From: Octopus vulgaris
Taxonomy: Eukaryota
DNA length: 64,000 nucleotides
Assembly: GCA_951406725.2 (NCBI GenBank)
Contig: OX597814.1
Span: 43,834,001 to 43,898,000 of the forward strand
Direction: 5' to 3'
Positions 9,063 through 57,580 of the stretch are shown here, piece by piece (the stretch's first letter is position 1; each line of letters opens with the position of its first letter). The notes under the pieces are model-generated. The model saw only the letters and a list, made by a program, of their open reading frames with translations. It was not told the DNA's origin and made no database searches. A program made the translations under genes and the position numbers.

Positions 9063-10148
9063 ATATTGTTATATTTCGGAATGGTCATTTTGCCAGTTTA
9101 GCCAATAAAAACACACGCACTATATAGTTGGTGTTATTTTGCTTCAGTTTTATTTATTTTTTACATTAATCTTAATCTTATTTCGGCCAGAGTTCTTTCA
9201 TGACACTCCTGTGACCACATCAGTGGTCCTTTGTTTTCTTCTTTCTTATTTGTAGAAATGTAGTCTATAGTATAAAATGTACAGAGGGACGATGCAATAA
9301 CAAGACAACGACATACGAAGGGGAAACGGCAAGAAGCATAGGAGAGCGGATAAATGAAGTTTGGAAACAACTCAAGGAAGGTAAAAGCTCATCGATTCTG
9401 TACCAACACGCCGAACAGGAACACGAGGGATCAATCAATAACATAGAAATTAAAATATTGTCCACACATAGAACAGATGCAACAATTAGACAAATTACAG
9501 AAGCTACACACATAATAGAGAATAAACCTAGCCTGAATAGAAAACTAGAATGGAGCACTAGCACACACCACAACATATGACGATAGAGGTTCCCGAAAGC
9601 ATAATAAATACACAGATAAATAAACAAATAGAAATAAATAACTATATATATTTTTTTTCGATTCGAATTATTATCATTATTACTAGTATTGTTGTTATAC
9701 ATACATACATACAAGCATATGTAATGATAATAATAAGTGGGTGTAAACACATGAACAAAATAAGAATAAACAAAAACAACAACAACAAAAACAAAATACA
9801 AATTACATAAACGTATATAAACAGAAGATACAAATATTACAGGCATCCCCCCACATACACACACTAAATAAACGTAGACGCACATAAAGATATACGCATG
9901 CGCAAATGAAGACATACAATAGAAATACAAAATGGCTGACGGTTAGTAAGGAGAGACACAAATAAGAAAGAAGAAAACAAAGGACCACTGATGCGGTCAC
10001 AGGAGTGTGATGAAAGAACTCTGGCTGAAATAAGATTAAGATTAATGTAAAAAATAAATAACACTGAAGCAAAATAACACCAAATATATAGTGCGTGTGT
10101 TTTTATTGGCTAAACTGGCAAAATGACCATTCCGAAATATAAAAATAT
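9063..10148 (+). mobile_element. 5'-truncated Penelope-like element (possibly Naiad-type) with an inverted copy of its 3' end
   Basis: Inverted repeats of about 190 bp (9063-9253 and 9958-10148) enclose a stop-free GIY-YIG frame and its 3' UTR. Confidence 0.85.
9254..9580 (+). pseudogene. GIY-YIG endonuclease domain of a PLE (no start codon; absent from ORF track)
   Basis: Translates as RNVVYSIKCTEGRCNNKTTTYEGETARSIGERINEVW...ILYQHAEQEH...TIRQITEATHIIENKPSLNRKLEWS...*. It has the VVY/YEG pair, the catalytic R and E, and the terminal N. Confidence 0.88.
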
Positions 10149-10235
10149 ATATATATAATATATATATGTGTGTGTATGTTTGTGTATGTGTATATGTGTG
10201 TATATATGCATGTGTACATATATATATATATATAT

Positions 10236-10340
10236 ATAATAAATATTAGGGAATAAATCCAAATTTACAGGGAAAAAATCAGATTTAGGATTAAATCCAA
10301 TTTTATAGTAAAATATTATATAATATTATTAGAGACAAAA
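10236..10340 (-). repeat. Fragment of the PLE-end family present at 23857-23960
   Basis: Reverse-complement match to ttttgtctctaat...ctaaatctgattttttccctgtaagtttggatttattccctaatatttatt. Confidence 0.75.
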
Positions 10341-13224
10341 TATATATATATATATATATATATATGCATGTATATATATATATATATATATATATATATA
10401 TATATATATACATGTACATGTATGTATATACATGAACGTGTTGATGTTAAGTAATAACAAATATAATTTCACTTTGAACTAAAAGCTTTTTTGTTGCGTA
10501 CAAATTTATTATTTTGTATCAAGAATACTTCAGTTTCTGGCAGCTAAGCCATCATCTGCCCAATGGCACATTAGCTGACCAAATCTTCGAAGTTATTATC
10601 AATATTTTCCTTGTTCAGAAATATATATATATATATATATATATATATATATATATATATATATATATGCATATATATAAATTCTTTTTTGTGTATTAAG
10701 TCTGCCATTTGTTTTGAATTTAAGACAAATCATAATACCTTATCTTCTTAACATGAAGCGAATAGTAGCCTTGTTAGAAAAATAAGGAAACTTGATCCAA
10801 CAATGCTCTGTTGAGTACTCATTCTGAATATTCGGTATTTACACACACACACACATACACACATACACATACATACACACACACACACACACACATACAC
10901 ATATATATATATGCATATATATAATATGCAGTATCACGTTCAAGTTTCTATGCGGGTACATTTGTTGAACAACTTCGTATTACGCAGATGCAGCTGCAAA
11001 CAATCAGTAAATGTGGAAATGTCCAATGCAGAAAGAAAGGAAGCAGATGTTTGTTACGTTATCAGGGACATTTTTGTTCTTTTTGCAATATCCGCACTTA
11101 CGAAGAGCCTAACGTTTTGGGATTTTTCAAGATATATAAGAGAATATCATTAAGTGCGCAGAACTCTGATAAAAACTACCCAAGGACCCTACTTAATTGC
11201 AATTACAAACGAAATGCAAAAGGAGCAAATCATTAAAGTGAAGTGTGAAAAATGCTGTTAATATTCACTAAATGTTCTTTAAAATATTATTCCACATACC
11301 ATACCTAATTTCTCCTTACCTTCTACCGCGGTAATTTCCCTCTTAAATTTTCTCCATATACAACATATAAACATCTACATATATATATGCACCCATATAT
11401 GCATATATACCCATATATACTCTCGTGAGAGAACGAGAGTATGTGTGTGTGTGTGCATGTATATTCAATGTATATATATATATATATATATATATATATA
11501 TATATATATATATATATATATATATATATATATGCGTCCATATACATATGCATATATGCAGTTATATATGTGTGGTTTATATATGTGTTTTTGTGTGCAT
11601 GAGGTTTGCGTATGTGCGCTCGTGTGTATATGCATGCATAGCTGTCTACACGAATTTTTGTATATGTGTGCAATAGTAAAATATTGGTGCGAGTTATACG
11701 CCTCTTTTTCTCCCCCGCATTTTTTTCTATTCCTACTCATTACGAAGCAAAAGCATCAGTTGAAACATATTTTATGACGAATCCTCAAGGTGAAATATAA
11801 TTATCGCTGCATACTTACTGATATATTTTATGATCAATTCTCGCAAAAGATACAGCCATCTCTACATTCATATATATAATATATGTGTGAACTGGGGGGG
11901 GGGGGGATGTAGTGCGAAATAAGTGTTTCTAAAAATATTCCTTTTGCAGATTATTTAGTTTTAAAATAGCAAATTTATGACATTTTTTTCTATCGACTTC
12001 GATCATTTTATCCTTCTTTGGCAAATGAACATAAATAAAATACTCACACACTAAAAAACATGCAAAAATTCAGAGAAAATAATACGCTTAACTGAAGAAC
12101 TGTGATGACTTTGACTACGTTCACTTTGTTGATATATTAACGCTCAATATTGCTAAAGAATGAACATTACTATTTGCATGGAATAAGTTGTGAAAAGTAA
12201 CCTTAATGAAATGGCTATTTGCTGAAAATATTTTCAGCTACTAAGTAAATATGTGTACAGAGAATTACCATTATTAAATAACGGAATACGGTATAGGTTT
12301 TGGTGAATTCTGCAACCATAAATATTGATTTCTATTGATGAATTACCTGGAATATTTGCGGCACAATCTACAGAATAGAACTAGGTTAGTACTGGTCCTT
12401 AAATATAAATAAATTGCTATGTTATAACGTATTGTTAAGTCTGCTGGGTTTGGAAAAGTTAGAAAATGTTGCTTCGAAACAACTTTAGATAATTGCATAA
12501 ATGTATATGCACATATGGGTAAATGTGTGTGTGAGGGGCGGGGTACGCTGAATTTTTATGTGCCTGCATGTGCAGGTGGAGAATGAGAGAGTAAAATTAA
12601 ATACAGACAGACAAGTAAGATATCCGATACAAGGGAACTGTTTTTTTAATCATCTGCTGACTGAAGTCGAAGTGAATTTCGGCACATTATCAATACAGTT
12701 GCTATTTAACATCCGACTACTGTGATAGTGCATGCACACTAGTGTACCAAAAATAAACGATTATATATATATATATATATATATATATATATATATATAT
12801 ATATATATATATATACAAAAATATTTAAGTTGGGTGAAGAGAAATTTACCTCATGTGGCTATGATAAAAAATATTGGACGAAGAGGCGAAAACTTTTAAG
12901 CAGTGAAGTCTTTTCACCAGAGAAAATGGAAGGAACAAATTAGGATAGAGTAAAATGTCTCGCCAAGGGAAAATAAGAAGAGGTAGCTGGAGGCTAATCA
13001 CTGAAAAGAGAGACCGGTTAGGCAAAGTAAAGGTTAGCTGATCCAAGATAAGAAACGATGAATATATACAATTGTGAAGTTAGTGTAGAAAATTAAGCAG
13101 GGAGAGAGTAAGGGTTATAACAGAAAAGCATAGGAGAGGGAACAAGAGTATAAAGAAATAGAAATCTGAAAGACAGATACTGAAAGTATCAAAATGTTGG
13201 TCTCTGAAGGAGAGATATATTTAC

Positions 13225-13460
13225 CTATTTCTTTACTACCCACAAGGAGCTAAACACAAAGGGGACAAACAAGGACAGACGAACGGACTAAGTCGATTAC
13301 ATCGACCCCAGTGCGTGACTGGTACTTATTTAATCGACCTCGAAAGAATGAAAAGCAAAGTCGACCTTGGCGGAATTTGAACTCAGAACGTAACGGCAGA
13401 CGAAATGCAGCTACGCATTTCGCCCGACGTGCTGACGTTTCTGCCAGCTCGCCCCGCCTT
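13225..13460 (-). mobile_element. tRNA-derived SINE, family A (GGCGGCGAGCTGGCAGAA head)
   Basis: Pol III A/B-box-like head (TGGCAGAAACG; GAGTTCAAATTC) and central CTTTCATxCTTTCGxGGTCGATTAAATAAGTACCAG. TSD aaggagag(ag)atatatttac at 13207-13224 and 13462-13481. Confidence 0.9.
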
Positions 13461-56640: not shown

Positions 56641-57284
56641 TCAAACTTCCCTTTTCTACCTCATTCTTCATGGATGGACTCACACAAATATATAAGGATA
56701 CCATAGATTCATCACTTCAAGCAAAAACTTATATTCTTTAAATATCATTTTTACTATTGTTGTTATTACCATCATCTTTATTATTTATGATATAACAATC
56801 TGAAATGTAATTGTCTATGCTAATTTATATAATTAGAAAATAATATAAATAAAGTGTTAAAATCTGAAAGTTAAATCAACAAACAATTATATAAAAAAGA
56901 TAATGCAAATGAAGCTAAAATGACAATTTTATAATTTGGGGTTTATCAGCAGCCTTTATTGAAGAACTCAAAAGAGTTGTCTCCCCTTATTCACAACACA
57001 GGGACTGAAGAACCACAATTACTACTACTTCCTGTTTTACCAACATCCTAAATTAAACCAAACAACACATGGCCTTAATCCCATTGGATCCTAATACCTC
57101 AAGGTAATTTTTTCGTGAACAATCATTAAACTCAAGATACACAACGAACTCACAATGTATCGGAGTACTTATTTTTTTTATTTTTTTATTTTTTTATTTT
57201 TATACATATTTATTATTATTCTTTTGCAAAAAACAATGCAACTTTTTTTCCCCGTTCTCATTTTTAAAAAATTTTTTCACCTAA

Positions 57285-57328
57285 CTATTCTTGATAAGTC
57301 AAACTATGACAAAAACCGGTTTGAATAG
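57285..57328 (+). ncRNA. Hammerhead variant with U3-A8 core pair (second copy at 55108-55151, minus strand)
   Basis: ctattc TTGATAA gtca aacta tgac (A/G)AAA A ccgg T TT gaatag. G12 is retained in the left-arm copy and stem II is intact in the right-arm copy. Confidence 0.7.
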
Positions 57329-57464
57329 ATATATATTTATATATTTTTCATTTTCTCATTTCATTAAAATTTTCTTACAATCGAGCATTCTGCATTTTTA
57401 CAATTTTTCCTTGCTTATCATTTCCCCACGTGCGGTCAACACAACCCCACCATTTATTGATCTA

Positions 57465-57580
57465 TATATATATATATATATATATATATATGTGTGTGTG
57501 TGTGTGTGTGTGTGTGTGTGTGTGTGTGTGTGTGTGTGTGTGTGTGTGTGTGTGTGTGTGTGTGTGTGTGTGTGTGTGCT
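57465..57580. repeat. (AT)n(TG)n microsatellite
   Basis: Directly visible. Confidence 0.95.

Follow-up and report, generated by a model that had tools for sequence, protein, structure and literature searches.

The window analysed here is a 64,000-nt stretch of the Octopus vulgaris genome (C1:43834001-43898000), in which an initial annotation of the sequence had named seven hammerhead-like motifs. All seven are present where that annotation placed them, and they belong to five repeat families, labelled F1 (motif at 23706), F2 (28309), F3 (39955), F4 (16321 and 53241) and F5 (55108 and 57285). These five families are members of the known Penelope-like element (PLE) hammerhead system, found here in a new genome. 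A sixth PLE family, F0, carries a hammerhead-like motif with an altered core. Judging from the sequences, the palindromes in helix III of the five families are likely to enable a pair of copies to bind each other and cleave; they probably do not serve as a family code.

Hammerhead motifs in the window

The motifs had been described as minimal hammerheads. This holds for F1, for the F4 copy at 53241 and, with a U at core position 6, for F3, all of which fit the type I fold, and the core of F2 is intact, whereas the copies at 16321, 55108 and 57285 are decayed (Table 1). A helix I of 4-6 bp and a helix II of 4-7 bp can be formed in F1, F3, F4 and F5. Helix I of F2 is weak, with only 2 bp beside the core, and its helix II is long and interrupted; F2 is an old family, with approximately 85% identity between copies. 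In genome-wide matches of F1, F2, F4 and F5 the core reads CUGANGA...GAAA...UH, or has the U3-A8 variant, and in F5 the U3-A8 core pair is compensated and kept in the family. All close pairs of motifs in the window are inverted, and therefore no transcript of the window would carry two neighbouring copies in the same sense.

Table 1. Hammerhead motifs and associated PLE features in the window
Feature	Position	Strand	Remarks
F0, sixth PLE family	9063-10148		inverted arms 9063-9253 and 9958-10148 around GIY-YIG-like fragment 9215-9580
F0 hammerhead-like motif	9982-10026		C at position 9; non-palindromic loop GAAC
F4 hammerhead motif	16321-16368	-	decayed: A9 to G, helix II broken; palindrome CAGCUG kept
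F1 fold-back	23512-23881		arms 23512-23672 and 23721-23881; minus-strand arm with only the 3' half of the ribozyme
F1 hammerhead motif	23706-23769	+	intact; helix I 4 bp, core CUGAAGA, 37-nt helix II region, helix III A-CGAUCG-U
F2 fold-back	27542-28521		inverted 3' end 27542-27798 and direct copy 27836-28521
F2 hammerhead motif	28309-28434	+	core at 28318 intact; helix II ~88 nt; palindrome CGGCCG
F3 minimal hammerhead motif	39955-39992	-	U at core position 6 (CUGUCGA); helix III ACGU
F3 GIY-YIG endonuclease, C-terminal fragment	40865-41032	-	877 nt upstream of the ribozyme, same strand
F4 hammerhead motif	53241-53287	-	intact; palindrome CAGCUG; A opposite A at the helix II base
Inverted F4 copy	53357-53412	+	decayed: GA run in place of GAAA; additional to the sites named earlier
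F5 hammerhead motif	55108-55151	-	U3-A8 core, palindrome ACCGGU, helix II broken; within inverted arm 55016-55258
F5 PLE frame	55251-56640	+	5'-truncated, frameshifted; reverse transcriptase 55251-56279; Cx4Cx2C linker and GIY-YIG 56179-56640
F5 hammerhead motif	57285-57328	+	sense 3' end; G12 to A in this copy; arm 57178-57418

Penelope-like element context

The initial annotation had placed all of the motifs in PLE 3' ends or fold-backs. A PLE frame could be tied to F5, F3 and, by eye, F1, while for F2 and F4 the link is through fold-back architecture alone. The F5 motif sits 3' of a frame with a reverse transcriptase (RT), a Cx4Cx2C linker and a GIY-YIG endonuclease, the relatives of which carry RVT_1 and GIY-YIG domains; the named relatives of the RT frame are mostly bivalve and octopod. 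In F3 a GIY-YIG frame is found approximately 870 nt 5' of the motif in the window and in two further loci, L279 and L324, and the endonuclease in L324, which is the same protein as the window fragment, matches Pfam GIY-YIG with an E value of 3e-4, below the curated cut-off. Judged against the description of PLE clades in PMC8557442, F3 and F5 belong to the Neptune/Nematis type. In locus L333 the 3' untranslated region (UTR) of F1 is repeated on the same strand at a spacing of 5.55 kb, and between the two segments lies an intact frame (L333 3-602) with CxCx5C, YIG, CxxC and CxH motifs and a GIY-YIG-like C-terminal domain, the motifs having been identified by eye. This frame gave no Pfam GIY-YIG match and no database relative; by eye, it would match the text description of the Hydra clade in PMC8557442.

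F2 and F4 have fold-backs, and long upstream tails are common to their copies; extension further upstream ran into unrelated sequence. What looked like endonuclease matches upstream of F4 and F1 proved to stem from an interspersed repeat, a contaminant, and were discarded, as were PLE fragments in the F2 loci L198 and L209, which lie on the opposite strand and to which F2 homology does not extend. The families had also been called unrelated. For F2 and F4 this cannot be taken as given: the two ribozymes have letters in common, and the loop of F4 was counted, by eye, in 2 of the 36 matches to F2.

Fold-backs of F1, F2, F4, F5 and F0 are present in the window, and divergent pairs occur among the genome matches of F1, F4 and F5. 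Same-strand tandem copies occur in L324 and L325 (F3 pairs), in L041 (an F4 pair) and as F1 3'-UTR segments 5.5-5.7 kb apart. The repeat search of the window was dominated by microsatellites, and only inverted pairs were taken from it. A perfect 208-nt fold-back without spacer (23972-24387) adjoins the F1 fold-back and is possibly another PLE end. Elsewhere in the window are a decayed RT-thumb and endonuclease fragment resembling the F3 protein (16951-17972, plus strand), a small decayed PLE linker/endonuclease fragment of another family (18430-18621, plus strand) and a Mariner/Mos1-type transposase fragment (44745-45284, minus strand; Pfam HTH_48). Abundant short interspersed repeats lie at 13215-13470, 16553-16795, 19123-19581, 24407-24851, 45836-46204, 48224-48650 and 58238-58483; they have approximately 200 matches in 1.4 Mb, and in L030 a core-like CUGAUGA...CGAAA stretch is located beside one of them.

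Abundance in the genome

Exact patterns for each family, with the loop left unconstrained, were searched against the 2.8-Gb, microsatellite-rich genome, with the reversed patterns as controls. F3 gave 16,589 matches, F1 688, F4 415, F5 135 and F2 36, and each reversed control gave 0. Two hammerhead descriptors were also used. The strict descriptor, which is blind to the palindrome and allows a helix II of at most 45 nt, was run on 1.0 Mb of stretches chosen by position and gave 38 matches, 33 of them palindromic, against 0, 3, 3 and 0 in four controls; 7 of the 38 belong to one tandem array. The looser descriptor gave 85 matches in 1.4 Mb, with 5-15 in controls. Extrapolation from both sample scans gives roughly 1-1.5 x 10^5 motifs, in agreement with the earlier expectation of very many motifs genome-wide. 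As extrapolated from these sampled stretches, the density of the window is therefore ordinary for this genome. The most abundant families carry the shortest loop, CG, in both scans.

Many low-copy families (L113 9397, L066 5752, L016 44, L317 7121 and others) have helix II inserts of 50-90 nt and palindromes of 6 to 10 nt, and on their sequences these long-loop families might cleave as monomers. In L061, at 3082-4512 on the plus strand and 7334-7693 in the minus-strand count, there is a tandem array whose units, of approximately 355 nt, all contain a type I hammerhead of canonical appearance with the loop CCGG; the array looks like a non-LTR (long terminal repeat) retrozyme. An Rfam search of the window had no hammerhead among the best 150 of 220 matches, only microsatellite-driven microRNA matches, and in 7 loci it gave 0 hammerhead matches at the gathering score. 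This test is insensitive here because the array in L061 did not score either.

Palindromic loops and dimer pairing

A family catalogue was made from the looser scan, in which 62 clusters were obtained with families delimited by their flanks alone. Of these, 27 that were single-copy and had a core other than CUGANGA were removed as probably false; some of them also have a CCGG loop. With F2 added by hand, the catalogue holds 36 families. The loop is a perfect palindrome in 19 of these, self-complementary with G.U pairs or an odd centre in 12, and not self-complementary in 5. Within families, self-complementary loops including G.U were counted in 34/34 copies of F1, 40/43 of F3, 28/30 of F5 and 37/49 of F4, in a looser-scan sample that takes in loci chosen by similarity; among the 36 F2 matches, 15 have an exact palindrome and 6 more have one with G.U (by eye). 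Among the 24 families with even loops of at least 4 nt, 19 have a central dinucleotide that is self-complementary by Watson-Crick pairing (P 1.5e-7), and 22 do when G.U is included. Central bases cannot pair inside one hairpin, and the constraint therefore points to a second copy. With self-complementary loops conserved within families and the central dinucleotide constrained, the proposal that the stem-III palindromes are suited to dimer pairing is supported.

F1 falls into subfamilies separated by loop II, and the palindrome is CGAUCG, CGAUUG or CAAUUG depending on the subfamily; CAAUCG, which would be mismatched, was not seen among the first 100 of the 688 F1 matches. Read from these loops, the F1 clade steps from CGAUCG through the G.U intermediate CGAUUG to CAAUUG.

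We consider it probable that minimal type I hammerheads at PLE 3' ends use the palindromic helix III to pair with another copy in their own tandem transcript and cut the element RNA, and that the palindromes differ between families by lineage drift and not as a selected code. A tandem PLE transcript would bring together two motifs of the same family. In the dimer, one copy would provide the core and helix II of a given active site and the second copy the strand to be cleaved, with helix III and both helices I formed between the copies, and cleavage after H17 would trim the PLE RNA, slowly and, by inference from the literature, probably in dependence on the PLE protein. Any self-complementary loop would suffice, so that loops could drift among palindromes, with change possible through a G.U step. 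Families would be largely unable to cross-pair as a by-product, mostly owing to their divergent helices I. The majority of copies in the genome, being solo or inverted 3' stubs, would be inert.

If the motifs instead cleaved as monomers, the palindrome would be a short intramolecular helix III. Some families beyond the five do have loops of 8-10 nt or of odd length that are able to close a hairpin. The 2-nt CG loop cannot do so, however, the 6-nt loops are complementary through the centre, and single minimal hammerheads failed to cleave in experiments described in PMC4209133; we therefore give monomer cleavage almost no credence as a general account.

Altered cores in F3 and F0

F3 is the commonest family, with 38 copies spanning the motif in 1.4 Mb. 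The U at core position 6 is present in more than 96% of its genome matches, as at most 620 of the 16,589 have another letter there (the non-U pattern being slightly wider), and in 33 of the 38 sampled copies; every other core position agrees with the hammerhead consensus. The majority of the first 100 non-U6 matches listed have C, as would be expected from later transitions. Among the top-scoring matches of the looser scan, 25 of 56 have U6, versus 0-2 in controls. A flank-distinct family with helices similar to those of F3 (cluster 4) keeps A6. A different register of the F3 core, U3...G8, would retain A6 but was set aside, since helix II would be broken and the variable base would become U4. 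Helix I of F3 seems to run two more pairs beyond a variable 2-nt bulge, and almost all copies have GUAG as loop II; such an arrangement might permit a loop-loop contact.

In F0, C9 is found in 35 of 37 matches and the loop GAAC in 36 of 37, so that A9 and a palindrome are missing from nearly all copies. F0 is young, with copies 98-99% identical.

These two families bear on whether many of the motifs no longer cleave, being kept as RNA structures (for example a site of binding, dimerisation or priming for the PLE protein) or simply hitch-hiking. The U6 of the largest family is in keeping with this, as position-6 changes lower activity in Mg2+: the natural A6C variant is described as slow in Mg2+ and rescued by Mn2+ (PMC3088659, PMC7151607). 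The C9 of F0 and the mismatches at the helix II base of F4 and F2 are also in keeping with it, and Naiads are reported to spread without hammerheads (PMC8557442). Variation within F3 argues the other way. Polymorphism within its motif is confined to N7, where all four bases occur, and H17, where A, U and C occur (2/35 columns, compared with 33/94 flank columns). Contigs of four runs aligned to the F3 motif did not list even the N7 variation; they do not show RNA ends and carry no information on position 6 in other organisms. G at position 17 was found in 93 matches versus 4,602 with U or C, and under the NUH rule G17 blocks hammerhead cleavage. This pattern would be that of a working hammerhead, though few subfamily-level events lie behind it. 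The compensated U3-A8 pair of F5 likewise argues against loss of cleavage, which we regard as a rather unlikely explanation for the motifs.

Literature searches, which did not cover Lunse et al. 2017, the likeliest source, found no natural A6U hammerhead. The fixed U6 core appears to be the new element here, possibly a new hammerhead variant. Somewhat speculatively, F3 could be an undescribed U6 hammerhead that is active in a particular setting, be it the presence of PLE protein, the geometry of the dimer or some metal besides Mg2+, and nearly silent in host read-through RNA, such throttling having let ACGU copies, identical and compatible with one another, build up in the tens of thousands without cutting host transcripts; we hold this to be a less than even prospect by a wide measure.

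Palindromes as a proposed family code

The initial annotation had proposed that the distinct palindromes act as a family-specific dimerisation code. In that case palindromes and helix I together would be selected for self-recognition, and co-active families would diverge to avoid being cut or tied up by each other's RNA. Such a code would fit the 14 different perfect palindromes among the 19 families and the mutual exclusion predicted for the five families of the window, whose homodimer helix sums are -17 to -33 kcal/mol while their heterodimers are at -13.5 kcal/mol or weaker; these energies, and those below, are nearest-neighbour sums over helices, not ribozyme folds. The proposal is not sustained by the catalogue, however. 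Flank-unrelated families reuse the same loops, with CG present in 3 of the 19 and CAGCUG, CCGG and CACGUG in 2 each, the commonest families use the shortest loop, and one clade, F1, switches its loop between subfamilies. Six shared loop pairs were observed, compared with 2.3 expected from a uniform null and 6.5 from a null with the observed C-first bias, so that sharing is at or above these two better-fitting expectations.

Predicted exclusion does not depend on which family has which loop. With helix III alone, the stability of the weaker homodimer is approached to within 1 kcal/mol by 59 of the 630 family pairs, many of them involving weak, doubtful motifs; with helices I added, only 4 of 630 are near homodimer stability, all with one doubtful motif. 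After loops were shuffled among families the mean was 4.5 such pairs (P 0.70), and the exclusion was unchanged because helix I must cross-pair too. A same-family partner would moreover be supplied by tandem transcripts without any code (our inference, with the review PMC6765202). A selected code thus seems quite improbable to us, and the practical prediction that the five window families do not cross-pair may hold all the same, on these modelled energies. Literature searches for published work on hammerhead heterodimer specificity found nothing relevant. The 2014 supplement of PMC4209133 already lists CG in most of its species and different palindromes in Aedes families.

Several points weigh against drifting palindromes that serve cleavage in dimers. 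A null that forces every loop to be C-first expects 9.1 shared pairs, more than the 6 observed (P 0.02), which favours a code, although 4 of the 19 loops violate that null; families, counted here irrespective of relatedness, may also owe a common loop to descent. The F1 loop changes are CpG deamination products as well, and part of the covariation may be mutational. Apart from the energies being helix sums, the catalogue is small, with 36 families of which 18 are single copies, some probably false, and 5 not self-complementary. No PLE frame was reached when loci of F2 or F4 were searched and extended upstream. F0 has spread recently with what is, from its core, probably a dead ribozyme and no palindrome. 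The PLE hammerhead of anole is reported to cleave only with the PLE protein, and its cleavage to be unnecessary for insertion in vitro, hammerhead mutants having been without effect there (PMC11167929).

Relation to known hammerheads

The closest comparison is with the minimal hammerheads of metazoan PLEs of Cervera and de la Pena 2014 (PMC4209133), which are described there as lying in PLE repeats, having a palindromic helix III and cleaving weakly, as dimers or trimers only; in a double hammerhead of type I, the two helices I are likewise formed between copies. The octopus motifs are like them in their type I fold near the PLE 3' end, the extra nucleotide after A9, the palindromic helix III and the U3-A8 variant, as well as in the many families per genome, the mostly solo or inverted copies and the palindromes that differ by family (in Aedes in that study). 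They differ from those described there in the U6 fixed in the largest family, the common palindromes of 6 to 10 nt, the helix II of ~88 nt in F2, the A.A or A.C at the helix II base, and a number of motifs near 10^5 as opposed to thousands in the genomes listed.

As in the Anolis Poseidon PLE (PMC11167929), the hammerheads here are PLE hammerheads in a pseudo-LTR; the clades differ, and the cleavage reported for Anolis was measured and protein-assisted, whereas for the octopus motifs it is predicted from sequence. Non-LTR retrozymes and the dimeric hammerheads of newt and axolotl (PMC7229834) also have a palindromic loop III, with dimer-dependent cleavage, and 126,247 type I motifs are given for the axolotl genome. 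Those are short non-coding tandem repeats, in contrast to the five families here, which are the ends of longer elements. The A6C hammerhead of phage Bcep176 (PMC3088659, PMC7151607) shares with F3 a natural change at core position 6, but it is a single phage motif with C, whereas U is present in at least 15,900 retroelement matches here. Searches of the literature for cephalopod hammerheads found nothing relevant.

For the function of PLE hammerheads this genome is a natural covariation set, with approximately 10^5 motifs, dozens of palindromes and a G.U stepping path. Its families with intact, U6 or C9 cores make both the dimer model and the dispensability of the ribozyme directly testable. 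Were the U6 core active, the known consensus of hammerheads would become broader, and standard descriptors would be missing the largest family. A family code would have been a new principle; the data point instead to a by-product.

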